A DNA stretch of 64,000 nt from Clostridia bacterium (lineage in GTDB: Bacteria > Bacillota > Clostridia > RUG12999): positions 25,049 to 89,048 of the forward strand of contig JAFTSG010000010.1 of NCBI GenBank assembly GCA_017467445.1, written 5' to 3'. The notes beneath the pieces are model-generated. The model was not told the DNA's origin and did no database searches. It saw only the letters and a program-made list of their open reading frames with translations. Positions 4,849 through 53,926 of this stretch are shown in pieces. Made by a program: the position numbers and the translations under genes. Each line of letters starts with the position of its first letter. Positions within the stretch are counted from its first letter, which is position 1.

Positions 4849-5351
4849 ACAGATATACAATGGCGGTACTTGTAAGCAATAAATTCGGTGTACTTAACCG
4901 TGTAACAAGTATGTTCAGACGTCGCAGATTTAACATTAATGCACTTACTGTAAGTGAAACCGAATCTGCGCAGTATTCGCGTATAACGGTTATTTTTGAA
5001 GGCGATGATATTGAAAAACAACAGCTTGTAAATCAGCTTCAGAAATTGCCGGATGTTTCTGCCATAAGAGACCTTGAACCCGAAACATCCGTAAGCTGCG
5101 AGCTTATGCTTATCAAAATGGAAAATAAGGCAGATACAAGAGATGAAATAATGATGGCGGCAAAAGCATTCGGCGCGCAAACAGTGGATTACACCCGTGA
5201 ATCAATGGTATTTCAGCTTACTGCAGACAGTACCAAGATTGACGAATTTATAAATCTTATGCGTGATTACGAAATTCTTGAAATTTGCCGTACAGGCAGT
5301 ATTTCGCTTGAAAAAGGCGCAACAACAATAAGGAAAGTAACAAACTTATAA
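4845..5351 (+). CDS. ilvN: acetolactate synthase small (regulatory) subunit
   Basis: ACT-domain start MAVLVSNKFGVLNRVTSMFRRRRFNINALTV. Its start overlaps the ilvB stop (ATGA coupling). Confidence 0.9.
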   Translation: MNRYTMAVLVSNKFGVLNRVTSMFRRRRFNINALTVSETESAQYSRITVIFEGDDIEKQQLVNQLQKLPDVSAIRDLEPETSVSCELMLIKMENKADTRDEIMMAAKAFGAQTVDYTRESMVFQLTADSTKIDEFINLMRDYEILEICRTGSISLEKGATTIRKVTNL

Positions 5352-5381
5352 AAACAATAATCAAATATATATAAAAAAAAC

Positions 5382-5410
5382 TTGACAAATACGGAAAAAG
5401 TATGTATAAT
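5382..5410 (+). promoter_or_regulatory. consensus sigma-A promoter with extended -10 upstream of yceD-rpmF
   Basis: TTGACA at 5382-5387, a 17-bp spacer, then TG-n-TATAAT at 5403-5410. Confidence 0.55.
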
Positions 5411-5448
5411 ATACTTTGTATGTAAACGGTTAAAGTTCGGAGGAAAGT

Positions 5449-5952
5449 ATGGAACTTGATTTAATCGGTATTTTAAATAACAACGGTGCCTCGCTTAAAG
5501 TGGACGGAACCGTAAGTTTTGAAAATATGGAATTTTCCGGCACGGAATATAAGTTTTCCGCTCCGCTTTCCATACAAGGAAAAATTGCAAATGTAAGCGG
5601 CGTGCTTGAATTTTCGGCTCACGTTACAGGCTCTGCTGATACATTTTGTGATAGATGTACAAAACCCATCGGCATTGAAATTGATTACGAGTTTAATGAA
5701 ACATTGGTTCAGGCGGATACAGAAGTAGAAGATGCTGACGATGTGCTGGTGCTTGACGAATCGGTTATCAATGTGGATGATATTGCACTTAATAATTTCC
5801 TTACAAACTGCTCACTTCAGCATTTGTGCAAGCCTGATTGTAAAGGTCTGTGCCAGGTGTGCGGTGCGGATAAAAATACTGAAAAATGTTCCTGCGAAGA
5901 AAATGTTACGGACCCCCGTTTGGACGTATTGAACCATTTGTTTAAAGACTGA
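5449..5952 (+). CDS. yceD: YceD/DUF177 family protein (large-subunit ribosome biogenesis-associated)
   Basis: C-terminal Cys cluster CKPDCKGLCQVCGADKNTEKCSC, and the conserved position immediately upstream of rpmF. Confidence 0.8.
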   Translation: MELDLIGILNNNGASLKVDGTVSFENMEFSGTEYKFSAPLSIQGKIANVSGVLEFSAHVTGSADTFCDRCTKPIGIEIDYEFNETLVQADTEVEDADDVLVLDESVINVDDIALNNFLTNCSLQHLCKPDCKGLCQVCGADKNTEKCSCEENVTDPRLDVLNHLFKD

Positions 5953-6019
5953 TTAAACATCAGATTTAATATACACTTTAAGTACATTAATTGCTGCTTA
6001 TCTAAGGAGGTGTTCGGGT

Positions 6020-6205
6020 ATGGCAGTACCAAAGAGAAAAACATCAAAAGCAAGACGTGATAAAAGAAGAGCTAATTGGAAACTTGCTATTCCGGGTATG
6101 GTAGTGTGCCCGCAGTGTCGTGAGTACAAAATGCCGCATAGGATTTGCAGCGCATGCGGATATTACAACGGTAAAGAAGTAATTGCAAACACACAGGAAG
6201 CATAA
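6020..6205 (+). CDS. rpmF: 50S ribosomal protein L32
   Basis: [18 protein letters not shown]... with the zinc-ribbon CPQC...CSAC. RBS aaggaggtg. Confidence 0.92.
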
Positions 6206-6226
6206 TAAAATTATCATGGTCCATGC

Positions 6227-6260
6227 AAAAAGGGGGTAGCACTACTCCCTTTATTTTTTT
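6227..6260 (+). terminator. Rho-independent terminator after rpmF
   Basis: AAAGGGGGTAG-CA-CTACTCCCTTT hairpin followed by a T9 run. Confidence 0.55.
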
Positions 6261-6280
6261 TCTTGGGGAAAGGTGATAAT

Positions 6281-7591
6281 ATGGATAAATATAACGAAAT
6301 TTCGTGCGTTGAAAAGAATAGTCCGGCTGATTCGGCAGGGATTATAGCGGGCGATATTATTACAAGTATAAACGGTAGTGACGTGTATGACGTATTGCAG
6401 TATAAATATCTTTGCGCCGATACAAAACTTGACATTGAAATTTCCCGCGGCGGCATAGCAAAAACATTTTATATAACTAAAGAAGAATATGAAGACCTTG
6501 GTCTTGAATTTACATATCCGCTTATGTCAAAGGCAAAAGGCTGTGCAAATAAATGCATTTTCTGTTTTATTGATCAGCTGCCGCCGAATATGCGTAAAAC
6601 GCTCTATTTCAAAGACGACGATTCAAGGCTTTCGTTTTTGCACGGAAACTATGTAACACTTACCAACCTTTCCAAACGTGAAATCAAAAACATAGGTGAA
6701 ATGAAAATAAGTCCCATAAACGTTTCGGTCCATACAACAGACCCTAACTTAAGGGAATTTATGATAAAAAACAAAAATGCCGGCAAAATGCTTGATATTA
6801 TGAAATATTGGGCAGAGTGCGGCATTGTAATGAACGCGCAGATAGTCCTTTGCAGGGGCATTAACGATGGTGCGGCACTTGATAAAACAATTTCGGATTT
6901 GGCAAATATGTATCCATCTGTAACGTCGGTTTCGGTTGTTCCTGTAGGAATAACAAAATACCGTGACGGACTTTATCCGCTAAAGCCTTATGATAAAGAG
7001 GCAGCGGTGCAGGTGGTAAGTCAGGTTGCCTCCTGGCAGGACAAACTTCTTTCCAAAATCGGAAGCCGCTTTATCTTTGCTGCGGACGAGTTTTATCTTA
7101 AAGCTGAAGAAGAAATTCCGCCGTTTGAAGCATATGAAGACTTTCCGCAGATTGAAAACGGCGTAGGTCTTATTGCGTCAATGCAGGACGAATTTGACTT
7201 TGCAATTGAAGATGTAAAACCGCTTAAAAAAGAAAAAACCGTAAGCATTGCAACGGGAATGGCGGCGCTTTCGTTTGTGCAGTCGCTGGCAAAGCGTCTT
7301 GAAGAAAAAACCGGTAACCTTAAAATAAACGTGTATGGAATAGAGAATACAGTTTTTGGCGAAAATATAACTGTTGCAGGACTTCTTTGTGGATGCGACA
7401 TTATAAACCAGCTTAAAGATAAGGAACTTGGACAGGCACTTTACATAACAACGTCAATGCTTCGTGCAGGGGAAAATGTCCTGCTTGATGATGTAACCAC
7501 AGACGACATTGAGAAGAAGCTTGGCACAAAAGTAATTGTAACTGATAACGACGGGTTTGATTTTGTCGATAAGTTGACAAAAATGCCATAA
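6281..7591 (+). CDS. DUF512-domain protein (PDZ plus Fe-S/radical-SAM-like domain), the conserved partner upstream of der in Clostridia
   Basis: N-terminal PDZ (SPADSAGIIAGDIITSINGSDV) and a Cys motif (CANKCIFCFIDQ). The ATG at 6281 with RBS aaaggtga is preferred over the track's TTG at 6263. Confidence 0.75.
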   Translation: MDKYNEISCVEKNSPADSAGIIAGDIITSINGSDVYDVLQYKYLCADTKLDIEISRGGIAKTFYITKEEYEDLGLEFTYPLMSKAKGCANKCIFCFIDQLPPNMRKTLYFKDDDSRLSFLHGNYVTLTNLSKREIKNIGEMKISPINVSVHTTDPNLREFMIKNKNAGKMLDIMKYWAECGIVMNAQIVLCRGINDGAALDKTISDLANMYPSVTSVSVVPVGITKYRDGLYPLKPYDKEAAVQVVSQVASWQDKLLSKIGSRFIFAADEFYLKAEEEIPPFEAYEDFPQIENGVGLIASMQDEFDFAIEDVKPLKKEKTVSIATGMAALSFVQSLAKRLEEKTGNLKINVYGIENTVFGENITVAGLLCGCDIINQLKDKELGQALYITTSMLRAGENVLLDDVTTDDIEKKLGTKVIVTDNDGFDFVDKLTKMP

Positions 7592-7632
7592 TAGTATATA
7601 ATTGTAAGGATAAAATAGTGGGGTAAAAAAGT

Positions 7633-8955
7633 ATGAAACCTATTGTAGCTATAGTTGGAAGACCTAATGTTGGAAAATCATCCTTGTTTAACAGACTTGT
7701 GGGCAAAAGAGTGTCTATCGTAGAAGATACTCCGGGCGTAACAAGGGACAGAATTTATGCCGAAACAGAATGGCGGAACATTCCGTTTCTTCTTGTTGAT
7801 ACCGGCGGTATCGAACCGGATAATGACGATATAATTTTGTCGCAGATGCGCCTGCAGGCACAAACAGCAATAGACACGGCTGATGTAATAATATTTGTTG
7901 TGGATGTAAAAACAGGACTTACCGCAACCGACCAGAGTGTTGCATCAATGCTTTTAAAGTCAGGTAAACCTGTTGTTCTTACAGTAAACAAAACGGATAA
8001 AGTCGGCGATCCGCCAATGGAATTTTATGAATTCTATAACCTTGGCATGGGCGATCCGGTTGCTGTGTCGAGTCTGCAAAGTCTCGGACTCGGTGATTTG
8101 CTTGACCGTGTATACGAGCATTTCCCGAATCCCGATGAAATAGAAGAAGAGGATGACGTAATCAAGGTTGCCATAATCGGCAGACCGAACGCGGGAAAAT
8201 CCTCGCTTATCAACTGTATCATCGGCGAAGAGCGTTCTATCGTAAGCGATATTCCCGGCACAACAAGAGATGCGGTTGACGCACCTTTTGAAAAAGACGG
8301 ACAAAAATATCTGTTTATCGATACTGCGGGTCTTCGTAAAAAATCCAGAATTGATGACGAAATTGAAAAATACAGTGTAATAAGAGCACTTGCGGCAGTA
8401 GAACGTGCGGATGTGTGCCTTCTTATGGTAGACGGTAATGGCGGTATCGCCGAACAGGACGCCAAAATTGCAGGCTATGCCCACGAAGAAGGCAAGGCTA
8501 CTATTGTGCTTGTGAATAAATGGGATCTCATTGAAAAACAGACCAATACAATGAGAGATTATAAAACAAAAGTTATGGAACAGCTTTCGTTTATGCAGTA
8601 TGCTCCCATTGAATTTATTTCAGCAAAAACGGGCGCAAGAGTAAACAAAGTTTTTGACCTTATTAAATCCGTAGCGGCAATGAACGCAATAAGAATAAAA
8701 ACAGGTGCGCTTAATGATATTATAAACGAAGCAACACTTAAAGTTCAGCCGCCGTCGGATAAAGGCAGAAGACTCAAAATATATTATGCAACTCAACCAT
8801 CAACAAAACCGCCAACGTTTGTTTTGTTTGTCAATAATAAAGAGCTTGCACATTTCTCATACATCAGATACCTTGAAAATCAGATAAGAGATGCCTTTTC
8901 AATCGAGGGCACACCAATCAGATTTATCATAAGAGAAAAAGGCGAGAAAAAGTAA
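7633..8955 (+). CDS. der: ribosome-associated GTPase Der/EngA (tandem GTPase domains plus KH-like domain)
   Basis: Two G1 motifs, GRPNVGKSS and GRPNAGKSS, plus the C-terminal KH-like domain. Confidence 0.93.
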
Positions 8956-43569: not shown

Positions 43570-44367
43570 ATGTATTATGTGGATTACCATATACATTCCG
43601 TCTTTTCAAATGACGGATTTATAGAAATTGATGAGGCCTGCGATAAAGCAATCGCCGAAGGCTTTGCGGAAATTGCATTTTCCGACCACTTTGACCCGTG
43701 GGCGGAAAACCCGGATTGTATAGACGTTTACGACCCGAAAGCACAGCGTGCGGCAATAGAAACGGCAAGAGAAAAGTATAAAGGCAAACTTAAAATTCTC
43801 TATGCAGTAGAACTTGGACAGTCCCAACTTTATCCTGAAAACGCATCAAAAATCGTGCAAAACGATTATGACTATGTCCTGGGCGCAGTTCACAGCATAG
43901 AAAACGACCTTGACCTTGCAAGAATAAAGTATACAAGCAGTAATTTCAAATCATATATGATGACGTCATATAAACATATTCTTGAGGTTGCAAAACTTGA
44001 TTTGTTTGACTGTCTTGCACATCTTGATTACCCGAAACGCTATATGGCACTTCACGGACTGCGCGTAAAACCGTGTGACTATATGGATATAATTGAAGAA
44101 ATTTTAAAAACGGTAATTGCAAACGGCAAGGGGATAGAGGTTAACTGTTCGGGACTTCGTCACCGTGTTAACGAAACCTTGCCAAACATTGAAATACTTA
44201 AGCTTTATAAATCGCTCGGCGGTGAAATCATAACGGTTGGGTCAGATGCACACCGCTTTGAACACGCACTTTTGTACATAAAAGATGCATATGAGATTAT
44301 TAAAGAAGCAGGGTTTGATTATATAACTCTGTTTGATAAACGAATTCCAAAATTTGTTAAATTCTGA
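43570..44367 (+). CDS. PHP-family histidinol-phosphatase-like hydrolase
   Basis: N-terminal YHIHSVFSNDG (PHP motif I) and later His/Asp motifs (AFSDHFD, HLDYP). Confidence 0.75.
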   Translation: MYYVDYHIHSVFSNDGFIEIDEACDKAIAEGFAEIAFSDHFDPWAENPDCIDVYDPKAQRAAIETAREKYKGKLKILYAVELGQSQLYPENASKIVQNDYDYVLGAVHSIENDLDLARIKYTSSNFKSYMMTSYKHILEVAKLDLFDCLAHLDYPKRYMALHGLRVKPCDYMDIIEEILKTVIANGKGIEVNCSGLRHRVNETLPNIEILKLYKSLGGEIITVGSDAHRFEHALLYIKDAYEIIKEAGFDYITLFDKRIPKFVKF

Positions 44368-44380
44368 AAGGAGAATTTAT

Positions 44381-44953
44381 ATGAATACAAACACACAAAT
44401 TAAACAGATTGCAGAAAGAATAAAAGAACTTCGCGATATACTCGATATGTCCTCTGCTCAGGTAGCGAAGGAAGTCGGTATCCCCGAAGAAGAATATATG
44501 CTTTATGAAGATGCTAAAGCAGACATTCCTGTCAGCGTGCTTTACGCCGTCGCTTCGGCCCTCGGGGTCGACACAACAGTGCTTCTTACGGGTGAAACAC
44601 CGCGTATGGAGGGCTACACCGTTGTCAGAGACGGAAAAGGCGTTGAGGTTGAAAGATATGCAGGCTACAAATTTGCTTCTCTTGCAGCAAACTTTATCGG
44701 CAGAGAAATGGAACCGATGATTGTTACTTTAAATAAAGGGGACAAACCTGCAGAACTTGTATTTCATGCAGGTCAGGAAATCAACTATGTTATTGAAGGA
44801 ACTGTTATGGTTACAATCGGCAAAAAAACCATTACTCTTGAAAAAGGTGACAGTGTGTATTTTGATGCAATGCAGCTTCACTCTCAGCAGGCGCTTACCG
44901 ACACGGCAAAGTTTCTGACAGTTATTAACGAAAATGCGAAAGGATTGAAATAA
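44381..44953 (+). CDS. XRE-family HTH plus C-terminal cupin-domain transcriptional regulator
   Basis: HTH IKELRDILDMSSAQVAKEVGIPEEEY and a C-terminal cupin (VFHAGQEINYVIEGTV). RBS aaaggagaatttatATG. Confidence 0.75.
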   Translation: MNTNTQIKQIAERIKELRDILDMSSAQVAKEVGIPEEEYMLYEDAKADIPVSVLYAVASALGVDTTVLLTGETPRMEGYTVVRDGKGVEVERYAGYKFASLAANFIGREMEPMIVTLNKGDKPAELVFHAGQEINYVIEGTVMVTIGKKTITLEKGDSVYFDAMQLHSQQALTDTAKFLTVINENAKGLK

Positions 44954-44955
44954 AA

Positions 44956-46617
44956 ATGATAGAAAGGTTTGTTCCTCAGACAGAGTTTGAAAGCTATGAG
45001 GATTTTAAGCAAAACTATAAATTAATCGTTCCCGAAAACTTCAACTTTGCCTATGATATAATTGACGGATGGGCAGCCGAGGAAGATAATAAACCGGCAC
45101 TTTTCTGGTGTGACGACGAAGGACACGAAAAGGAATTCACGTTTGGTGACATTAAAAGATTAAGTAATAAGGTTGCAAATTACTATAAAAGGCTAGGTAT
45201 CAGAAAAGGGGATAAGGTAATGCTTATGCTCCGCCAGCGTCCCGAAGCATGGATATGTATCGTGGCACTTTGTAAGCTCGGTGCGGTAAGTATTCCGGCA
45301 ACCTTCCAGCTTACTCCTAAAGACATTGAATACCGATGTAACAGCGCCGAAATTAAAATGATTACCGCTGTTGATGACGATGAAATACTTAAACATATTG
45401 AGCTTTCAAAAGATAAATGTACAACTCTTGAAAAAATCGGTATCGTAGGTACAAACATTCCTGACGGAATGCTTGATTTCCGCAGTGAATATATAAAAGA
45501 AAGTGATGTGTTTGACCGACCGACAGGTGCAGAAGGCACAACCAACGAAGATACAATGCTTATCTATTTCTCATCCGGCACATCTGGAATGCCGAAAATG
45601 ATACGCCACGATTTCCGCTATCCGCTCGGACATATCGTAACGGCAAAATACTGGCAGAAAGTTCAGGACGGCGGCAGACATCTCACAATGTCGGATTCCG
45701 GCTGGGCAAAATTTGCGTGGGGTAAAATATACGGTCAGTGGATTTGCGGTGCCGAAATCGTTGCATATGACGATAAAAAATTCAATCCGGCACACCTGCT
45801 TGCTACACTCCGCAGGGTAAAACCGGTTACATTCTGTGCACCGCCAACGGTTTACAGATTCCTTATTAAAGAAGATATCACAAAAGAAGATTTTGCATCT
45901 GTTCAGCACGCATGCATTGCAGGCGAACCTCTAAACCCCGAGGTTTATAACAGATTTTATGACCTTACAGGACTTCGCCTTACAGAAGGATTCGGACAGA
46001 CAGAAACAACGGTTATCATTGCAAACTTCGGCTGGTTTGATGTTAAACCCGGTTCAACAGGTAAACCTTCACCGATTTATGATATTGATATTGTTGACGG
46101 CGACGGTAATTCTTGTGAAGACGGTATCGTAGGCTCAATCGTTATAAAAAATGCCACATCCGAACGTCCGGCAGGTCTTTTCAGAGAATACTACCGTGAC
46201 GAGCAGGCCAATGCAAAAGCATGGCAGGACGGTATGTATAATACGGGCGATACCGCATGGCGTGATGCCGACGGATATTACTGGTTCGTAGGAAGAAATG
46301 ACGATGTAATCAAATGTTCGGGTTACCGTATCGGACCATTTGAGGTTGAAAGTGCACTTCTTACACATAAAAGCGTACTTGAATGCGCAGTAACCGCCGC
46401 ACCCGACCCCATCCGCGGACAGGTTGTAAAAGCAACGGTTGTTCTTGCAAAAGGTTACACACCGTCGGACGAGCTCCGTAAAGAACTCCAGAATCACGTT
46501 AAGGTAACAACAGCTCCGTATAAATACCCGCGAATTCTTGAGTTTGTGGACGAGCTTCCTAAAACAATCAGCGGTAAAATCAAGCGTGCAGAAATAAGAA
46601 AAGAAGATAATAAATGA
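44956..46617 (+). CDS. AMP-forming acyl-CoA synthetase (acetyl/medium-chain ACS-like)
   Basis: IYFSSGTSGMPKMIRH AMP-binding motif, a YNTGDTAWRDADGYYWFVGRNDD hinge region and a C-terminal ISGKIKRAE Lys. Confidence 0.8.
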   Translation: MIERFVPQTEFESYEDFKQNYKLIVPENFNFAYDIIDGWAAEEDNKPALFWCDDEGHEKEFTFGDIKRLSNKVANYYKRLGIRKGDKVMLMLRQRPEAWICIVALCKLGAVSIPATFQLTPKDIEYRCNSAEIKMITAVDDDEILKHIELSKDKCTTLEKIGIVGTNIPDGMLDFRSEYIKESDVFDRPTGAEGTTNEDTMLIYFSSGTSGMPKMIRHDFRYPLGHIVTAKYWQKVQDGGRHLTMSDSGWAKFAWGKIYGQWICGAEIVAYDDKKFNPAHLLATLRRVKPVTFCAPPTVYRFLIKEDITKEDFASVQHACIAGEPLNPEVYNRFYDLTGLRLTEGFGQTETTVIIANFGWFDVKPGSTGKPSPIYDIDIVDGDGNSCEDGIVGSIVIKNATSERPAGLFREYYRDEQANAKAWQDGMYNTGDTAWRDADGYYWFVGRNDDVIKCSGYRIGPFEVESALLTHKSVLECAVTAAPDPIRGQVVKATVVLAKGYTPSDELRKELQNHVKVTTAPYKYPRILEFVDELPKTISGKIKRAEIRKEDNK

Positions 46618-46620
46618 TGA

Positions 46621-46646
46621 AAAGCGACCGAACGGTCGCTTTTTTG
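46621..46646 (+). terminator. Rho-independent terminator after the acyl-CoA synthetase
   Basis: AGCGACCG-aac-GGTCGCT followed by TTTTT. Confidence 0.65.
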
Positions 46647-46701
46647 TATAACCTGTAAAAATTGTGGTAATAATTGATGAAACAACATTTTTGGAGGAAC
46701 T

Positions 46702-47286
46702 ATGACATTACTTAGGATTTCATCAATTACATTACTTGGAAGTATAATTATTTCAGTTATCTTATCAACTGCCATTGTTTGTGCGGGAAGTGAACCCAAA
46801 CCTGCATTTGATGGCGAGATAGTGCGCCTGCACGTTATTGCAAACAGTGATACGGACTTCGACCAGGCACTTAAACTTAAAGTGCGTGATAGCGTACTTG
46901 CGGTGTCAAAAGCAGTCGAAAGTGCAGAAATGTCAATAGATTTTGCGCGAGAAAATGCAGAAACTATGCGTACAGCCGCCCTTGAAACAATAAAAAAAGA
47001 AGGGTATAGCTATGATGTGAAAATTGAAGTAGGAGTCTTTCCTTTTCCTGCAAAAGCCTACGGAGATTTGATATTCCCTTCAGGAGATTATAACGCCGTA
47101 AGAGTGGTGATAGGTGAGGGGAAAGGGCAAAATTGGTGGTGCGTAATGTTTCCTCCGCTTTGTTTTACAAATGAAACTACTGCTACAATGCCGGAAGAAT
47201 CAAAAGATATGCTTTCTGATGAAACAAAAGATATGCTTGGCGGCGGCAAATATAAAATTAAATTCAAACTTGCGGAAATTTTTTGA
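46702..47286 (+). CDS. spoIIR: stage II sporulation protein R
   Basis: Signal/TM N-terminus and a conserved IVRLHVIANSDTDFDQALKLKVRD core, 194 aa. Confidence 0.82.
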   Translation: MTLLRISSITLLGSIIISVILSTAIVCAGSEPKPAFDGEIVRLHVIANSDTDFDQALKLKVRDSVLAVSKAVESAEMSIDFARENAETMRTAALETIKKEGYSYDVKIEVGVFPFPAKAYGDLIFPSGDYNAVRVVIGEGKGQNWWCVMFPPLCFTNETTATMPEESKDMLSDETKDMLGGGKYKIKFKLAEIF

Positions 47287-47305
47287 AGATGATGCTAATT
47301 TAGGC

Positions 47306-47334
47306 TTGACATAAATTTGAAATTGTGTTATAAT
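47306..47334 (+). promoter_or_regulatory. sigma-A promoter for the tRNA-Ser pair
   Basis: TTGACA at 47306-47311, a 17-bp spacer, then TGtTATAAT (-10 at 47329-47334). Confidence 0.5.
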
Positions 47335-47347
47335 ACTAAAGTCGCGT

Positions 47348-47434
47348 GGAGAGATGTCCGAGTGGTTTAAGGAGCTAGTCTTGAAAACTAGTGACTCGAA
47401 AGAGCCCAGAGTTCGAATCTCTGTCTCTCCGCCA
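47348..47434 (+). tRNA. tRNA-Ser (anticodon TGA), with long variable arm and encoded CCA
   Basis: Acceptor GGAGAGA/TCTCTCC, anticodon loop CTTGAAA, long variable arm (GTGACTCGAAAGAGCCC), T-arm GAGTTCGAATCTC, CCA at 47432-47434. Confidence 0.8.
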
Positions 47435-47480
47435 TTAATTTTATAAGAGGCAACCGAGTTTCGTCAGGTTGCCGCTTCGT

Positions 47481-47572
47481 GGAGAAGTACTCAAGTTGGC
47501 CGAAGAGGCGCCCCTGCTAAGGGTGTAGGTCGGGTAACCGGCGCGAGAGTTCAAATCTCTCCTTCTCCGCCA
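47481..47572 (+). tRNA. tRNA-Ser (anticodon GCT), with long variable arm and encoded CCA
   Basis: Acceptor GGAGAAG/CTTCTCC, anticodon loop CTGCTAA, long variable arm, T-arm GAGTTCAAATCTC, CCA at 47570-47572. The 3' 23 nt are repeated at 53856-53878. Confidence 0.8.
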
Positions 47573-49224
47573 TCTAAATACGAACTTTCACTTTTAGAGT
47601 GAGAGTTTGTATTTTTTTTATCTTCTTTTTCTCTGTTTTTTAAGTCTTTCTTAAACTGTAAGGCATACTTTGGAGCATAACCAGGTATCTTTAAGTTAAT
47701 GGTAATATTTAAACATACTTCTTTTTCACCAGGTACAGAAAACTCATCTATTGTAATTTTTTCAATCAGTTTATTAAACAATATTTTTAACTGTTCTCTG
47801 TCTAACTCTTGGAAATCACAATATGTAATATGCTCATAACTCATTTTTGATTGTTCTCTCAAAAAGTTTTCTTCTTTTTCAAAGTCTATGTTTTCATATA
47901 CTTTTAATGTTTCATTTTGAAAAGCAATTTGAGAAAGGACGCTATTTAATTTGTCCTTGTATGTATCAACAATCAGTTTATCATCTTCTTCAAGCATAAG
48001 ATTTAACAATTTTTCTTTTTGAGTACTTAATTTTTTTATATCACTTTTTATTTTGCTTACATCTTTTTTCTTTGCTTTAAGTGCTTCAATTCTCAATCTT
48101 AATTGTTCTTCAAATCTTTCCCTATACATATCACTTGTCAAAATCTCTTGCAACTGATAAACAACAAACTTTTCAAGTAATAATGCAGGTATATTATGCC
48201 TATTACATACAGTTTTCCCATGTCTCTTGCTACCACATTGATAGTAATATATTTTCTTCCCGGAGTTAGAAATACCAGAGGTCTGTAAATACAGATTATT
48301 ACAATTTGAACAGAACACAAGACCTGCAAGAGGGGCAGAAGATATAGCACTTCTGTCAACTTTGCTATAATCTACATTTTTTCTCTTTTTTTCCATACTC
48401 TCTTGAACTTTCTCAAAATCTTCCTTTGATATTATTGGAGTATGTGTATTGGGTATAACTAACCACTCATTTTGAGGGTTATATTTTTTGCCACTACCCT
48501 CAGGTGCTCTTTTGTTATAAACTGTTATTCCAGTATATGCTTCATTTTTGAGCATACAAAGAACACTTGTTTTAGACCAAAACTTACTGTTTTTAGGTGG
48601 TTTTATTCCATTTTCATTGAGGTAATTACATATTTTTTCTGAACCCCAAGACCTATTCAAATACAAGTCAAAAATCAGTTTTATAATATTAGCCTCTTCT
48701 TCATTGACTTGTAAATGTGATTTAACCAAATTATAACCAAATGGACTTTGACCATTCCACTCTCCTTTTCTGATTTTGCTTTTTATACCTTCTTTAACTT
48801 TTACAGAGTAAATTAAAGAATAATACTCATTGATTAAAGAGTTCATATTTTTCATTAAAAAGTTTGTAGCAGGGTCTCCTTGATTGTAGTGTTGTTGCCT
48901 TGTGTAAATCAATTTAACATTATGCTTTTCACAAATGTTGCCAACAACCAAAGAATCTTCTAATTGCCTAAACATTCTGTCATCTGAGATAGCAATTATA
49001 CAATCTATACTTTTATTCAAAATATGCTCTAAAATAAACTTTCCTTGTGGTCTGTCTTTCATAGCATTTTTGTAGGCAGAAACACCACCATCAATATAGA
49101 CATTTAGTAATTCAATATCATTTTCTTGACAATATCTCCTTATCTCTTGCTCTTGTGTATCTAATGAAAAACCTTCTAAAACTTGCTCTTCTGTTGATAC
49201 TCTGCAATAACCTATTGCTTTCAT
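47551..49224 (-). CDS. large serine recombinase (resolvase/invertase N-domain, recombinase domain and zinc-ribbon domain)
   Basis: N-terminal AIGYCRVSTEEQ (catalytic Ser), ~557 aa, with a C-terminal Cys pair region (CSNC...CGSKRHGKTVC). The last 7 codons overlap the tRNA-Ser 3' end. Confidence 0.88.
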   Translation of the reverse strand: MKAIGYCRVSTEEQVLEGFSLDTQEQEIRRYCQENDIELLNVYIDGGVSAYKNAMKDRPQGKFILEHILNKSIDCIIAISDDRMFRQLEDSLVVGNICEKHNVKLIYTRQQHYNQGDPATNFLMKNMNSLINEYYSLIYSVKVKEGIKSKIRKGEWNGQSPFGYNLVKSHLQVNEEEANIIKLIFDLYLNRSWGSEKICNYLNENGIKPPKNSKFWSKTSVLCMLKNEAYTGITVYNKRAPEGSGKKYNPQNEWLVIPNTHTPIISKEDFEKVQESMEKKRKNVDYSKVDRSAISSAPLAGLVFCSNCNNLYLQTSGISNSGKKIYYYQCGSKRHGKTVCNRHNIPALLLEKFVVYQLQEILTSDMYRERFEEQLRLRIEALKAKKKDVSKIKSDIKKLSTQKEKLLNLMLEEDDKLIVDTYKDKLNSVLSQIAFQNETLKVYENIDFEKEENFLREQSKMSYEHITYCDFQELDREQLKILFNKLIEKITIDEFSVPGEKEVCLNITINLKIPGYAPKYALQFKKDLKNREKEDKKNTNSHSKSESSYLDGGEGEI

Positions 49225-49333
49225 TTGTAATCACTCCTTGTAATAATATTTATATTATTATATATATTATATCAGTTTTGATTTTCCTTGTCTATTGATG
49301 TATTATATAAAATGTTTTATTGTTTTTTTACTC

Positions 49334-49903
49334 TTAAAACTCTTGATTTATATAGTCTTTAATTTGATTGTTAATATATCTGTTTTTTGAATTATGCTTT
49401 GTGTTCTTCAAGACATTTATTCTGTCTATAATTTCAGTTATTGAAATGTTTTCTCTAACAAAACCATTCTCCAAAAAATACATATATCTAATATCAAAAA
49501 ATCTTGCATAATAGCAAGGGTTAATGACTATATAATTATTTCTGCCTCTCTTGTAATAGTCAATTATATTATTCTGTTTTAGCACCTTTAAGCAATTATA
49601 TAAATGACCTATTGTAAATTGCATATTGTCTGCTATTTCTTGCAATGATAGGTTAATTAGGTTCAAGTCAGGTTCTATGTATCTTGAATTAACATTGACA
49701 AGCAATATAAAAAAGTTTATATATTTTCTGTCAAGTTCTGTTCTAAAAATCAAGTCATTAAGTTTAATATCAAAAATCTTCGTAAATCTTCTCTTGTCTT
49801 TATGCTCTCTGTCATTTATAAGTATTGTGTTATACCCTTTGTCCTCAATACTCTGTATTTCTTCTCTTAAATCATAATTTGTATCAATTTTACTTTTTCT
49901 CAT
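49334..49903 (-). CDS. hypothetical element protein (possible winged-helix replication/regulatory protein)
   Basis: 189 aa, basic, AT-rich codon usage; the wHTH-like segment is a weak call. Confidence 0.35.
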   Translation of the reverse strand: MRKSKIDTNYDLREEIQSIEDKGYNTILINDREHKDKRRFTKIFDIKLNDLIFRTELDRKYINFFILLVNVNSRYIEPDLNLINLSLQEIADNMQFTIGHLYNCLKVLKQNNIIDYYKRGRNNYIVINPCYYARFFDIRYMYFLENGFVRENISITEIIDRINVLKNTKHNSKNRYINNQIKDYINQEF

Positions 49904-50034
49904 TTCTCACTCCTTAACAGTTAATTTATAGTGTATGATATTATAAGCTATAGTATAGGTGTTAAATCTCATAAAATGCCATTAAAACCTTGCTTAAAGT
50001 GATTTTTAGCATTTTTTATATTCTTACTCTTGTA

Positions 50035-50457
50035 TCAGTCAATATCTGCTATGTCATAAACATTAGCACTAAATACAAAATATATCTCATTTAATGCTTG
50101 ACATTCTGAAAACATATAATCAATATTAAATATTCTCAAATATGATTGAAGAAAAGCATTGATTTCAGGTGTCCAATTTTTAACAATTAAAAGATTATTG
50201 ATAAGTGATACATCTGCATTATAGACAATTTCTGTATAGTCTGCCAATTCTTCAATAAGTTTATATTGATTTATCATTATAAACCCTTTTATGTTCTCTG
50301 CAATGCCTTTTTGTAGCAAAGAAGAAATAATATAACTGATATTAGATTGAGAGCAACCCAAACACCTTCCCATTTCTGCTTGATTAAAATTAAATGTTTT
50401 ACAGTTGAGTAGTGATATAGTTAAAATCTCACTACTATTGACAAAAAAACCACTCAT
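50035..50457 (-). CDS. hypothetical HTH-type DNA-binding protein
   Basis: HTH-like segment NQAEMGRCLGCSQSNISYIISSLLQKG. Confidence 0.35.
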   Translation of the reverse strand: MSGFFVNSSEILTISLLNCKTFNFNQAEMGRCLGCSQSNISYIISSLLQKGIAENIKGFIMINQYKLIEELADYTEIVYNADVSLINNLLIVKNWTPEINAFLQSYLRIFNIDYMFSECQALNEIYFVFSANVYDIADID

Positions 50458-50606
50458 AGAGCACCTCCAATATAAAAATATAATTTAGAGTTTATATAAA
50501 TATAAATCTCTTTATATAAGGTTTTAACATCATCTTTTTACTCTGTCAAATTAAAAACGCGCAACAAAAAAACAACCCCATTTTTTGAGGTTGCTTTGTA
50601 TGTATA

Positions 50607-51086
50607 TTAACCTTTGTAATTGTCAATTACATCTTTATCATTGCCAACAAGTCTTAAACCTTTTGTTGTCAAAAAATCTCTTAACTCTCTTTTTTTATCA
50701 GTTGGAACTTGGGAACTCTCATTGATAGAAAACCAAACACCCCTTACCTTATTCCAACTTTCAGGGTAATTTATAATGCCATAACTATTTATGTATTTCA
50801 TTAAAATATCAGGACTATTGCTATCTGTGTTTTTTATGATAGTATCAAAAGTCTTTCTTTTTGTTTTTTCAAACTTAACTGCATATAGAAAAAATGCAAC
50901 AATAGAAGAAACAAAAACAGAAAAACCAGAAATCAAAAGAAGGAGCAGACTTATTCCTACACAACCCATCACAAAATTATACTTTTTTATTTTTATAAAT
51001 ATCAAGTATTGTAAGATTACAAGTAATACTATTAAAAGTCCTGTGTTCTCCATAAAAATCAACTCCTTAGCCTTTGTAATTGTCAA
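50607..51086 (-). CDS. membrane protein with conserved C-terminal ~65-aa domain (paralog A)
   Basis: Two N-terminal TM helices. The C-terminal motif NYPESWNKVRGVWFSINESSQVPTDKKRELRDFLTTKGLRLVGNDKDVIDNYKG is shared with the adjacent gene. Confidence 0.5.
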   Translation of the reverse strand: MTITKAKELIFMENTGLLIVLLVILQYLIFIKIKKYNFVMGCVGISLLLLLISGFSVFVSSIVAFFLYAVKFEKTKRKTFDTIIKNTDSNSPDILMKYINSYGIINYPESWNKVRGVWFSINESSQVPTDKKRELRDFLTTKGLRLVGNDKDVIDNYKG

Positions 51087-51504
51087 TAATCTGTTTTTCA
51101 GAATTGTTTAATCTTAACCCATTGGTTATAAGATAATCTCGCAATTCTTTTTTCTTTGCAGTTGAAACATTGGAGCATTCATTTACAATAAACCATACAC
51201 CCTTAATTTGGTTCCATTGCTCAGGGTGGTTAAAGAACCCCCATTGTTTCACATAAGTTAGAAACATATCAACTGAACCATTATTGGTTGTTTTTGAAAC
51301 CATTTCACATTTTGCTTTTAAGACCTTTTTGAATTTTAATGTGTAGATGCCATAAGCAGGAATTCCTATTATGAACACAGGGAAAAGAACACACATAACA
51401 ACAAAAGCATAATTTTGTTTTTTTACTGCTACCATTATTCTGTAAATAGCATAAAACCCCACACCTACGGCAATAGCACCAGATAAATTACTTAAAAACT
51501 CCAT
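51067..51504 (-). CDS. membrane protein with conserved C-terminal ~65-aa domain (paralog B)
   Basis: Two TM helices. The C-terminus NHPEQWNQIKGVWFIVNECSNVSTAKKKELRDYLITNGLRLNNSEKQIIDNYKG has ~50% identity to paralog A over that domain. It overlaps paralog A's start by 20 nt. Confidence 0.5.
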   Translation of the reverse strand: MEFLSNLSGAIAVGVGFYAIYRIMVAVKKQNYAFVVMCVLFPVFIIGIPAYGIYTLKFKKVLKAKCEMVSKTTNNGSVDMFLTYVKQWGFFNHPEQWNQIKGVWFIVNECSNVSTAKKKELRDYLITNGLRLNNSEKQIIDNYKG

Positions 51505-51621
51505 ATAATCAACTCCATAATTTATTACATTTTCAAAAACTTCCGTGTTAAGGTAGTTTTGTTTAATTATACACCATAAACAATGATTTGTAAATAGTTT
51601 ATAATTAAATACATAAAATAA

Positions 51622-51891
51622 TTGTTGAAAAAGGTGTATTTAATGGACTATTACAATGAAAAAGAATATCAATTATTTATCATAAAAGTAGGGTTAAAAG
51701 TTGGTTATTACAGAAGATTGGCAAATATGACACAAGAGGAATTGAGTGAGTGTAGTGGTATGTCATTAAACTTTATTTCTCAACTTGAAGGACCAAGTGC
51801 CCCTTATGTGCCTTCTCTTAAATCTCTCTATAAAATAAGCAAGGTTTTAGGTGTTCCAGTTTCTAAACTGACAGATGTTGATAATGATTAA
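51622..51891 (+). CDS. XRE-family HTH regulator (89 aa)
   Basis: Classic HTH_3: MTQEELSECSGMSLNFISQLE. It is divergent from the membrane-protein pair. Confidence 0.6.
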   Translation: MLKKVYLMDYYNEKEYQLFIIKVGLKVGYYRRLANMTQEELSECSGMSLNFISQLEGPSAPYVPSLKSLYKISKVLGVPVSKLTDVDND

Positions 51892-51918
51892 AAGACTGCT
51901 CAAACAAGAGTAGTCTTT

Positions 51919-52920
51919 TTAACTATACAGATATATTTTCTTTAAGTCCTGTCTTTCTCCACTATGTGATAAATGCCTTTGTATAACAAAGGTTTCTGCT
52001 TTTTCTCTGCTCCAACCATTTGAAACATAATACTCAACTGCAAGTTGGCAATGATATTTTCTAAACTCATGATTTTTACCACTTTCTGCAATTCCTAATT
52101 CTTTGGTTATTCTTCTTATCTCATTGCTCATTGTAAGTCTTGCCATTTTCTCATTTTTAGGTAAATCAAAGACTTTTTCTGTTGATTGCTTACCTTTTAT
52201 CAATTCTTGAAAAAATGACCTATACTGTGGCAAAATAGGTCTGTAAGACAATTTCCCACCCTTGCCAATGATTTTTACTGTGTTGTAGGTGTCAATCTTG
52301 CCATCTTTTGTTGTAGTTGTGTAGATATGTTTTGTTATGTTTATATCTTCTGCTTTTATGCCTATCATCTCAAACACCCTACAACCAAGAAAACACATAC
52401 ATTTTATCTCTGCTTGTCTTTTGCTTTCAAAATTATAAATCTTTTCTATTTGCTCATTGGTGTATAATCTGCTTGAATTAGTTTTATAGGTGTCTACCAC
52501 TTTATGAGTTCTTACATCTTCTGTATAAAACCCTTGTATGTGAAACTTTTGAGAACAAGCAAGAGAAATCTTTTCAAGAGCATTTTTATAGGCACTTATG
52601 GTTTTACTGCTACAACCTTGTTTTGTGTCTAAAAATGCTATGCACATTTGAGGGGTTATATCTCTAACCATTTTGACATTGTAGGTCTCTTTTAAAAACT
52701 TTGTAAAGGCTTTTGATTTCTCTGTTATATTCTCTGCACTCCTTTTACTGAAAATATAGTTAATGCTTGTCTTGTTCTGCTTAAACTCTCTTTTGCCTAC
52801 TGTCTTGTAATGGGTGTTGTTTTCTTTGTTAAAAATCTCTGTTCTTTTGTCTTTGTCTTGTAGGTTGATTTCTGCCAATGCACTATGTATTTGAAAGCCT
52901 AAACTTTTTGATTTTCCCAT
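51919..52920 (-). CDS. tyrosine-type site-specific recombinase/integrase
   Basis: Catalytic-motif candidates: R (LGCRVFEMIGIKAEDI), K (IIGKGGK), H-x-x-R (NHEFRKYH), H (RHLSHSGER) and a C-terminal Tyr (KKIYLYS). Confidence 0.72.
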   Translation of the reverse strand: MGKSKSLGFQIHSALAEINLQDKDKRTEIFNKENNTHYKTVGKREFKQNKTSINYIFSKRSAENITEKSKAFTKFLKETYNVKMVRDITPQMCIAFLDTKQGCSSKTISAYKNALEKISLACSQKFHIQGFYTEDVRTHKVVDTYKTNSSRLYTNEQIEKIYNFESKRQAEIKCMCFLGCRVFEMIGIKAEDINITKHIYTTTTKDGKIDTYNTVKIIGKGGKLSYRPILPQYRSFFQELIKGKQSTEKVFDLPKNEKMARLTMSNEIRRITKELGIAESGKNHEFRKYHCQLAVEYYVSNGWSREKAETFVIQRHLSHSGERQDLKKIYLYS

Positions 52921-53644
52921 AAATACCCCCTTTTTACTGTCATATTTCTTAAAAAATACAAGAAATATGATTTTTTACATTTTTTCTGATTATATTTTAA
53001 TTTTATTCTTTTAATTTCAATTTTTTCTGCTCTCTAAAAAGTGTTTAGGTTTAAGCACCTAACCACTTTTTATACGTAGAATATGGTATAATAAAATCAG
53101 CTTTTTTATTATACCATATTTCCATAAAAAAAAGACAAGGTTTGCTCCTTGCCTTAATCTGTTCTGTTGTGAGAAAAACTGCCTTTTTACTTTTATTGTT
53201 TAGTATGCTTAAAAGCACATAGGACATATAAGAACAAGTCCCAAAAATAAAAGTATATATAATCACTTTGAAAGTGTTAAAAAGGGTTTTATTTTCCTTA
53301 TCTTCATTTTGTCAGTAGTCAATGTCTATGTAGGAAGAAAAAAGGCAAAAAAGACAGTTTTTCAATCTGTAAATAAAAATATAAGTCTTTCAATTATAAC
53401 TATCTTTTGATAATTCAAATCTATAATGAGTTAAGGAGTTCTGCTCCTTATATGCAATCTGTTAGTTGGTATAATAATTGGAGTGATACTCTTTATATTA
53501 TACCAACCAACAAAAACTCCTTTTTTATTTGTAAATTAAATTAAGTTATTGTAAGAGTACAACTCATCTAATTTAAAACCTCTTCTCAAATATAGTTTTT
53601 TACAGTAGTTTGGAATATAAATAAAAAACTCGGAAATAGTAGGG

Positions 53645-53705
53645 AGTTGCCCTTCTCCGCCACCAAAAAGCAAGCACATTTGTGCTTGTTTTTTGGTTTT
53701 TGAAA
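53645..53705 (+). repeat. copy 1 of a tandem ~60-bp repeat carrying a 13-bp tRNA-Ser 3'-end fragment plus a hairpin
   Basis: CCCTTCTCCGCCACCAAAAAGCAAGCACATTTGTGCTTGTTTTTTGGTTTTTGAAAGGAA is nearly identical to 53866-53926. Confidence 0.6.
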
Positions 53706-53855
53706 GGAATTTGAACTCGAGCGCCGAAGGCGCGGGCTTTGAAACCGAGCGCTGCCTGCGGCAGAAGAAGCGAGGATGAAAAGGGAGAAAATAACGAGCA
53801 TATGCCCTGTGCCACTGTGCGCGGGACATATGCGACTATATTTTCGAGTGGGTAT

Positions 53856-53926
53856 TTCAAATCTCTCCTTCTCCGCCACCAAAAAGCAAGCACATTTGTG
53901 CTTGCTTTTTTGGTTTTTGGAAGGGA
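53856..53926 (+). repeat. attR: 23-bp direct repeat of the tRNA-Ser 3' end, then copy 2 of the ~60-bp repeat
   Basis: TTCAAATCTCTCCTTCTCCGCCA followed by CCAAAAAGCAAGCACATTTGTGCTTGCTTTTTTGGTTTTTGGAAGGGA. Confidence 0.65.

Follow-up and report, generated by a model that had tools for sequence, protein, structure and literature searches.

We analyzed a 64,000-nt stretch of a Clostridia bacterium genome (GenBank assembly GCA_017467445.1, contig JAFTSG010000010.1, positions 25,049 to 89,048 of the forward strand), hereafter the window, in which a small AT-rich element lies against the 3' end of a tRNA-Ser(GCT) gene. Its features are listed in Table 1 in window coordinates. Next to the element, spoIIR (46702-47286) and two tRNA-Ser genes are uninterrupted, and an Rfam search of the region found the two tRNAs and no further match. 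The element encodes a large serine recombinase (LSR), a 189-aa and a 140-aa protein, two small paralogous proteins, a helix-turn-helix (HTH) regulator and a 333-aa protein with the fold of a tyrosine recombinase, here called Yrec333. An earlier note on this DNA, made from the letters alone, had described a small integrative and possibly mobilizable element with an AT-rich interior, a 557-aa serine recombinase whose C-terminal codons are the tRNA 3' end, a 333-aa tyrosine recombinase, and no obvious capsid, terminase or conjugation genes. This description was confirmed in its main lines. The GC content is 0.23-0.33 from ~47600 to ~53600 compared with 0.37-0.47 on either side; the open reading frame (ORF) of the LSR and its Pfam domains (PF00239, PF07508, PF13408) agree with the claim; Yrec333 scores above the Pfam Phage_integrase cut-off; and there was no capsid, terminase, type IV secretion system, coupling-protein or conjugation match in Pfam, PHROGs, NCBIfam or PADLOC. 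PADLOC and NCBIfam, run on all proteins, returned generic HTH, Xer and Ccr similarity and no more. The element has its own integration module (the LSR) and no mating-pore genes, with candidates for a relaxase (Yrec333) and for an origin of transfer, oriT (the region upstream of the Yrec333 gene). It is of a known kind, resembling an integrative mobilizable element (IME) with a serine integrase, and is probably mobilizable; it is unusual in that the integrase, by its own reaction, gives its gene a new tail. Our joint reading, which we consider likely, is a 6,090-bp integrative element inserted by the LSR at tRNA-Ser(GCT), with a re-tailed LSR gene and with Yrec333 as a non-integrase core protein and likely relaxase.

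Table 1. Features of the element and of the adjoining host DNA in the window.
Feature	Position	Strand	Evidence or remark
tRNA-Ser(TGA), just upstream of tRNA-Ser(GCT)	47348-47434		ARAGORN, Rfam
tRNA-Ser(GCT), integration target	47481-47572	+	ARAGORN; Rfam tRNA 50 bits
LSR, integrated-state form, 557 aa	47551-49224	-	Pfam Resolvase, Recombinase, Zn_ribbon_recom; PHROG 95 integrase 1e-107
attL core CCTTCTCCGCCA, final 12 nt of tRNA (3' acceptor strand, discriminator, CCA)	47561-47572	+	
Element-derived hairpin and T-run immediately behind the tRNA CCA	47576-47614	+	Terminator scan
189-aa protein, probably winged-helix, accessory/regulatory	49334-49903	-	Weak HTH matches
140-aa winged-helix protein	50035-50457	-	Weak MarR/Crp/TrmB matches; travels with 189-aa gene
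Terminator after cargo genes	50569-50597	-	
Cargo slot; encodes two small paralogs, each hydrophobic in an N-terminal segment	50607-51504	-	
159-aa cargo protein	50607-51086	-	
145-aa cargo protein	51067-51504	-	
22-nt inverted repeat, candidate operator between divergent HTH_3 gene and leftward operon	51562-51609	.	82% complementary, 4-nt spacer (pair I14)
Xre/Cro-type HTH_3 regulator	51622-51891	+	Pfam HTH_3 3.8e-8
Yrec333, 333-aa tyrosine-recombinase-fold enzyme	51919-52920	-	Pfam Phage_integrase 35.2 bits vs cut-off 27.1
Palindrome-rich intergenic region upstream of Yrec333	52921-53535	.	Repeat search; candidate oriT or lox/dif-like site, also promoters
Palindromes upstream of Yrec333	52940-52970, 53035-53072, 53080-53120 (17-7-17, perfect), 53460-53512		
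Detached 3' end of LSR gene (tail)	53536-53650	-	In-silico circle junction
attR core CCTTCTCCGCCA, right junction of element	53651-53662	+	L001 alignment, host-flank divergence, GC step
Host block, outside element	53663-53878 (216 bp)	+	Conserved in L001 behind another insert
Terminator copy B, in host block	53665-53697		
Inverted tRNA T-arm-like fragment, in host block	53709-53726		
Covarying hairpin, in host block	53798-53833		4 compensatory pairs between two species (window, L001)
23-nt copy of tRNA 3' end, in host block	53856-53878		
Original tRNA terminator, after host block	53881-53910		

The 3' end of the tRNA-Ser(GCT) gene (47550-47572) is repeated exactly over 23 nt at 53856-53878, as the earlier note had seen, and the match cannot be ascribed to chance. 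The same note took these 23-bp repeats for the ends of a 6.3-kb element, a claim that did not survive comparison with relatives. The tRNA end occurs a third time: at 53651-53701, CCTTCTCCGCCA (12 nt) and ~48 nt of terminator repeat 53867-53917 (repeat family D2). By our estimate about one pair of 12-nt repeats is expected by chance in 6 kb, and the repeat is not significant alone; it becomes meaningful because of the following comparisons. The only close relative from a genome scan with SpoIIR was L001, a Clostridia metagenome-assembled genome (MAG) whose SpoIIR is 87% identical. Its alignment to the window runs from 44001 to 47572, the CCA end of the tRNA, and stops there; it resumes exactly at CCTTCTCCGCCA (53651) and takes in terminator copy B, 145 nt of GC-rich sequence and a 22/23-nt copy of the tRNA end. 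Between the shared blocks, at the same insertion point, L001 holds an unrelated 7.5-kb insert. Because 53663-53878 (18388-18605 in L001) is common to both genomes behind different inserts, it is host DNA, and the insert ends at the 12-nt copy. Ten metagenome contigs (L097-L106) encode a 99% identical Yrec333 and match the right end of the element with 94-98% DNA identity. They add seven further, mutually unrelated host flanks, each with a different terminator-like sequence, and all meet the element at TGGCGGAGAAGG; with the window's own, eight different host flanks diverge exactly at the 12-nt core and not at the 23-nt copy. The GC step at the right end coincides with the 12-nt copy, where the AT-rich DNA ends, and the LSR relatives of L081, L083, L090 and L091 lie against this core in tRNA-Ser(GCT) genes that have different T-arms. 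These comparisons show the 12-bp core to be the junction on both sides and the 23-bp repeats not to be att sites; the element therefore spans 47573-53662, i.e., 6,090 bp including one copy of the core, and not 6.3 kb. The different insert of L001 and the copies in eight host flanks also uphold the view that the insertion is not ancestral.

The predicted attP, with the LSR 3' end joined to the tail described below, reads ...TATTTAGATGGCGGAGAAGGGCAACTCCCTAC... and the predicted attB, with the tRNA joined to terminator B, reads ...GAGAGTTCAAATCTCTCCTTCTCCGCCACCAAAAAGC... Some results weigh against such an exchange. An empty tRNA-Ser site, for which the earlier note had proposed a comparison with close genomes, was not found: the sole close genome relative, L001, could be compared and its site is occupied, and a scan of Joint Genome Institute (JGI) metagenomes with the 35-nt tRNA-terminator junction gave none. 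The attP junction of the exact window element is absent from the loci that were fetched, and excision would have to be read from the relatives and from the spread of the element.

The tRNA-Ser(GCT) gene is intact despite integration and identical, by eye, to the tRNA of L001. The hairpin and T-run that follow its CCA were present at this position in every family member examined (L081, L083, L090, L091), with a stem sequence that differs each time, and replace the displaced tRNA terminator. This segment is used twice, as a terminator on the tRNA strand and, on the opposite A-rich strand, as the coding sequence for a K/E/N-rich linker near the LSR C-terminus. Excision during sporulation in the manner of skin, raised in the earlier note on account of the neighboring spoIIR, found no support: no gene is interrupted, the tRNA is intact and the neighbors in other hosts are unrelated.

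The LSR (NCBI record MBQ9097345.1, "recombinase family protein") consists of an N-terminal resolvase catalytic domain, a recombinase domain and a zinc ribbon, and its R8 and S10 do not vary across the aligned family. An AlphaFold2 (AF2) model of the homolog P0023 has long paired helices (366-445) inside the zinc-ribbon domain, and NCBIfam found similarity to CcrB, CcrC and XisF. Identity within the family (P0001-P0032) is 48-98%, after which it falls to ~30%. Homologs 55-93% identical end in tRNA-Ser(GCT) in four other genomic contexts; wherever the context was recovered, the gene runs antisense into the 3' end of this tRNA, and the neighbors of tRNA and element differ by host (ThiF/radical SAM, MBOAT/GidA, patatin/MurD and YunB). 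Since relatives of the LSR, and not those of Yrec333, track the tRNA-Ser site, we take the LSR to be the integrase, which appears to have inserted the element into the last 12 nt of tRNA-Ser(GCT).

The integrated LSR ends in ...YLDGGEGEI-stop. Its last 7 codons and the stop are the antisense of the tRNA 3' end, the stop being the TCA of the T-loop, and the attL core read antisense is GGEG. By our count of C-termini, 28 of the 33 LSR family proteins end in tRNA-encoded residues; 21/33 end in ...GGEG(G/E)I with the TCA of a TTCAAAT T-loop as the stop, and 7/33 read on through a tRNA with a TTCGAAT T-loop. The host tRNA sets the stop of the integrated LSR: with TTCGAAT the whole tRNA is read in antisense, which adds ~23 residues and gives forms of 575-580 aa (e.g., L091 11635-11737). 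A sub-branch of the family (L093 5006-5018; P0028, P0029, P0031) has another core, TGGCGGACGGGGG, which codes for GGRGG. The tail of this sub-branch is homologous to the others, and its target is presumably another tRNA.

When the ends of the element were joined in silico, the LSR frame crossed the core and extended to 592 aa, adding QLPTISEFFIYIPNYCKKLYLRRGFKLDELYSYNNLI-stop, encoded from 53650 down to 53536. P0023 (596 aa, 55% identical to the window LSR) has a homologous tail, and its contig L092 (8,311 bp) has a contiguous LSR-core-tail junction, no tRNA and no recognizable host gene. The same 26-nt perfect palindrome stands at both ends of L092, as would be expected if the assembler had broken a circle or a tandem array at a hairpin. 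Further tails came from L091/L111/L112, L093, L113 and L116, giving six distinct versions overall of 39-47 codons counted from GGEG; a second metagenome scan yielded short contigs only, and these supplied additional tails. They share the pattern F.F.I ... L.RG ... (D/E).L..(Y)NN followed by a stop, and in the four versions examined by frame the other two frames close within 24 codons. The tail alignment scored 282 compared with -192 +/- 33 for shuffled tails, and the nucleotide differences between tails were distributed over the three codon positions as 110/90/123. Other observations on the tail are less favorable. Some of the conservation in its proximal part (ISE, CTATTTCCGA) could belong to an attP arm and not to a protein; the linker and tail of P0023 have a predicted local distance difference test (pLDDT) score <40 and no structure in the AF2 model; and the tail peptides had no match in Pfam. 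The distal conservation is too far from the core for the attP-arm explanation. We concluded that, at the sequence level, attP is shown to lie within the LSR reading frame, with the circular form predicted to code a conserved ~37-aa tail, and integration is shown to swap ~37 C-terminal residues of the LSR for a tRNA-encoded "EI-stop" (592 to 557 aa).

The 592-aa and 557-aa isoforms might differ in activity or stability, in which case recombination itself would alter the enzyme, as it does for IntP/IntX of Mx8. In Mx8, attP is located within the tyrosine integrase gene, and integration gives a new 3' end and altered activity (PMC6070905). The window LSR has in common with IntP/IntX that attP lies in the recombinase's own gene and that integration makes the new 3' end. 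The integration target of Mx8 is reportedly a tRNA gene, and related cases of an attP in the element's own gene are described for SSV1-type integrases and for the immunity of mycobacteriophages that depends on integration. The enzymes of Mx8 and SSV1 are tyrosine integrases and the mycobacteriophage gene is a repressor gene, whereas here the gene is that of an LSR; unlike in the Mx8 type, ~37 C-terminal residues behind a flexible linker are swapped, and the new end and stop come from an antisense tRNA. In the literature searched we found no case of attP in its own gene for a serine integrase.

Other LSRs, namely the integrases of A118, phiC31, Bxb1 and SPbeta, the Ccr proteins of SCCmec and TnpX of Tn4451, have the same domain architecture, and their elements are alike in placing the recombinase gene at the element end by attP and in short att identity. 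The window LSR stands apart from them as a distinct family that targets a tRNA 3' acceptor end and has attP inside its ORF, and no directionality factor was recognized for it in the element. A more far-reaching proposal, which we regard as doubtful, is that the 592-aa circle form is integration-proficient and the 557-aa form excision-competent or silenced, a switch without a separate directionality factor, and that Yrec333 is the transfer (relaxase-type) enzyme, which would extend the MOB_M relaxases to full-length recombinases in Clostridia. Serine integrases are valued genome-engineering tools; they are strictly directional, and the direction is normally set by a separate protein. If the proposal is true, an integrase with its C-terminus swapped by its own integration would be a natural self-modifying switch.

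Yrec333 (NCBI record MBQ9097351.1, "site-specific integrase") belongs to a family of 97 proteins with 47-100% identity. R181, K220, H284, R287, H319 and Y330 are invariant in 32 sequences (49-100% identity). The AF2 model (pLDDT 92.6) has a two-domain tyrosine recombinase fold with IntI, XerH, XerA, Tn1549 Int, lambda Int and Cre as top Foldseek matches; its alignments to recombinases of two domains (IntI, XerH, Cre) extend over 300-360 columns, and there is a weak Pfam match to a SAM-like N-terminal domain. Yrec333 is accompanied by a window-type LSR in the window, L083, L091, L092, L093, L097, L099 and L121. In L087-L089 and L094-L096, with no window-type LSR on the recovered stretch, it is found beside a 400-aa classical tyrosine integrase (Phage_int_SAM_3 and Phage_integrase) and an HTH_17 excisionase; host genes come directly after the 190-aa gene in L087-L089, and the contigs of L094-L096 end before that point. 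In none of the contexts recovered was Yrec333 the sole recombinase. Because it pairs either with the LSR or with a classical integrase (Int) and excisionase (Xis), the integration module is exchangeable. Co-occurrence shows Yrec333 to be the invariant hallmark core gene of the family and not its integrase. This is a clear case of a gene annotated as "site-specific integrase" that is not an integrase, with consequences for relaxase counts and for pipelines that annotate mobile elements automatically.

Every family member has a non-coding region of 530-730 bp upstream of Yrec333. In the window, TGGTATAATAA occurs there four times as two inverted pairs and within the element is limited to this region (52921-53535). 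The palindromes TGGTATAATAAA..TTTATTATACCA and TTAGGT..ACCTAA recur in L087-L089, and TCATATTTCTT..AAGAAATATGA recurs in L091 and, by eye, in L093. Yrec333 may act on this palindrome-rich region upstream of its own gene. The tyrosine recombinase (TR)-like relaxases TcpM, MpsA and MobK have oriT beside or upstream of the relaxase gene (PMC8152469, PMC6414798). MOB_M, to which they belong, is described as the commonest chromosomal relaxase, with an integrase adjacent in 96% and frequent annotation as an integrase, and has a hidden Markov model (HMM) score cut-off of 84 (bioRxiv 10.64898/2026.01.13.699239).

With somewhat less than even confidence we propose, as the most likely role, that Yrec333 is a relaxase of this type, acting at an oriT and making the element an IME. 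Like MOB_M systems such as SGI1 (Int, MpsA/MpsB and oriT), TcpM of pCW3 and MobK of pIGRK, the element combines an integrase with a second tyrosine-recombinase-type protein, and it is like MOB_M IMEs in having a repeat-rich non-coding region beside the gene, no mating-pore genes and exchangeable cargo. The minimal members L091 and L097 keep Yrec333 and its upstream region and have no other candidate transfer gene, and near-identical copies in many hosts require efficient transfer. An hhalign comparison of Yrec333 with TcpM gave a probability of 90.6 (E 1.3e-6). Both proteins end in RxDxxKIYLxS; Yrec333 stops 3 residues past the catalytic Tyr and TcpM likewise within a few residues. Other observations tell against a relaxase. 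XerD scored slightly above TcpM (95.3, 2.2e-8), and the sequence similarity of Yrec333 to TcpM is no better than to XerD. TcpM, MobK and MpsA are described without a core-binding (CB) domain (PMC8152469), whereas Yrec333 keeps a full one along with the Tyr and the whole catalytic pentad, and so departs from a MOB_M definition that excludes arm-binding and core-binding domains. The palindromes upstream of Yrec333 also look like extended -10 promoters (TGnTATAAT), there is no known conjugative helper, and tblastn with Yrec333 gave no pCW3-type match. The element further differs from MOB_M islands in having an LSR as its integrase, a type reported in <1% of them (bioRxiv 10.64898/2026.01.13.699239).

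Yrec333 could instead be a Xer/Cre-like resolvase that acts on a lox/dif-like upstream site (e.g., 53080-53120) and resolves the multimers or tandem arrays that would arise when the circular form replicates or is transferred by rolling circle, a role which we consider unlikely. Its full two-domain fold with an R-K-H-R-H/W-Y active site, invariant here as R-K-H-R-H-Y, agrees with this role, as do XerD as the top profile match, IntI, XerH and Cre as the top folds, and weak tblastn matches to tyrosine recombinases of small plasmids. The candidate site has the geometry of Cre/loxP and Xer/dif sites, with 17-nt inverted arms and a 7-nt spacer, and such palindromes are conserved in L087-L089. LSRs are not known to resolve dimers by attP x attP recombination. 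Against this role, Yrec333, like TcpM, lacks the C-terminal stretch past the Tyr through which the subunits of Cre, lambda Int and XerD contact each other. The element also has no recognizable replication gene or other replicon function, and the region showed no rearrangement among the 10 near-identical copies. Two further roles were considered for Yrec333. That of an invertase is unlikely, with no inverted variant among these 10 copies, and an integron-like cassette role, suggested by IntI as the top fold match, was rejected: the palindrome motif is restricted to the upstream region, with none between the cargo genes.

Movement in the capsids of a helper phage, as a phage satellite or a decayed prophage, is improbable. 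The small size, the tRNA site, the Cro/cI-like switch, the defense cargo of relatives (GmrSD in L083) and the rapid spread between hosts would suit a satellite, but PHROG matches are limited to the integrase and regulators, with no structural match, and there are no packaging, primase or capsid-redirecting genes. The element DNA had no match in phage and plasmid records, Yrec333 had none in phage records, and neither recombinase had a relative in IMG/VR (2.9 million contigs; single-sequence and profile scans). The LSR and Yrec333 architecture is moreover compact and intact in many copies, and the degenerate prophage suggested in the earlier note is unlikely for these reasons. Quite improbable, too, is a role of Yrec333 as a DNA-binding regulator like YopR/MrpR and SroF of SPbeta/phi3T, with the palindromes as operators. 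SPbeta combines an LSR with these proteins and so has both folds in one element, as in the window; Foldseek matched YopR, MrpR and SroF at E 7e-5 to 1e-3, and several of the repeated palindromes overlap promoter-like sequences. The TM-scores are nevertheless 0.29-0.32 (to 0.46 for DNA-bound SroF) compared with at least 0.5 for true recombinases, the six catalytic residues, needless for a pure repressor, are invariant, and the element has an HTH_3 regulator besides. Tyrosine integrases typically leave long direct repeats at tRNA 3' ends, the 23-nt repeat is real and tandem arrays occur at the site in L091 and L121, but a 6.3-kb island bounded by 23-bp repeats and integrated by the tyrosine recombinase, with the LSR from a second, nested or tandem element as the earlier note had surmised, is very improbable because a single conserved architecture unites LSR and Yrec333, Yrec333 elsewhere stands with a separate classical Int and Xis, the 216 bp inside the outer repeat are host DNA conserved in L001, and eight host flanks diverge at the 12-nt core.

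The preferred reading, an LSR-integrated element with Yrec333 as its core protein, extends to a modular family found so far in uncultured Clostridia MAGs and metagenome assemblies. Members range from 4.8 to 12 kb. The smallest, L091 (~4.8 kb) and L097 (~5 kb), are without the 140-aa and 189-aa genes, and minimal members carry LSR, Yrec333, HTH and cargo and no more. Close relatives also show shuffling of modules: L097 is 98% identical to the window element on the Yrec333 side and only 67% in the LSR gene. The spread over eight host flanks shows mobility, not route; the element is real and recently mobile. The slot between the HTH_3 and 140-aa genes carries exchangeable cargo: relatives have GmrSD and Sel1 (L083) or YpsA-like genes (L087-L089) there. 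The family thus amounts to a compact, apparently highly transmissible vehicle, with uncultured Clostridia as some at least of its hosts and with a defined slot for cargo, filled in one relative by a GmrSD-type gene. In L083, whose far end lies beyond the 10-kb flank recovered, GmrSD, a Sel1-repeat protein and a 356-aa protein (4771-8570) occupy the slot of the small paralogs of the window. In L088 (2257-4477) and L089 (2925-5175), an EcoRI-type methylase and a GmrSD_N/HNH protein beside the classical integrase are further candidate cargo.

The insert of L001 (10874-18375) encodes Mor, a 531-aa LSR 27% identical to the window LSR, a DUF927/Cch-type protein and a split second resolvase. Together with L121 4560-9325 it represents an unrelated element type that uses the same 12-bp core, has a 494-531-aa LSR, a DUF927/Cch-type protein and Mor, and is reminiscent of SCC. 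In L121 this element and one of the window type stand in tandem, and the LSR of the latter continues over the common core into the former (P0223 ends GGEGSYTVKIP...). Beside the inner core of L091 (6640-6823), 180 nt remain of the 3' end of a second window-type LSR gene, which is evidence of tandem accretion followed by deletion at the tRNA.

Of the three HTH or winged-helix proteins proposed in the earlier note, one is a clear HTH_3 protein, and the 140-aa and 189-aa proteins have only weak winged-helix matches. The HTH_3 regulator is probably 82 aa long from the ATG at 51643, as called in relatives, and its gene is next to Yrec333 also in L088, L093, L094 and L097-L106. There are promoter-like sites on both strands at 51562-51609, and the HTH_3 protein and the operator-like palindrome may form a switch. 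The L083 ortholog of the 140-aa protein scores better (HTH_Crp_2 5e-5). The 189-aa protein has 74 homologs, all unnamed, and its gene is present in L083, L087-L089 and L093 and absent from L091, L092 and L097. Searches with the family profiles of both proteins against PDB sequences gave insignificant winged-helix matches and nothing else. The suggestion that these proteins are Rep or excisionase candidates gained no support from HMM annotation, and both are absent from the smallest members.

The two cargo proteins of the window (159 and 145 aa) share 40% identity and had no family match in Pfam, PHROGs, PADLOC or NCBIfam. The small membrane proteins of the earlier note stand in so far as both have hydrophobic N-terminal stretches; the membrane segments, and with them the topology, are a reading of these stretches. 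The two genes are a tandem duplication of ~460 bp (50346-51201; repeat families D3 and D6), and the C-terminal halves of the proteins are well conserved: W..(V/I)(R/K)GVWF..NE.S.V...KK.ELRD(F/Y)L...GLRL.

On the host side of the right junction, the block 53663-53878 had no match in ARAGORN or Rfam, and its folding z-score is only -1.4. Older integrations may have left it as a scar; alternatively, it might be a second decoy attB or a small structured RNA. Inspection by eye showed a fragment similar to its inverted T-arm in the flanking host DNA of L104 and L111.

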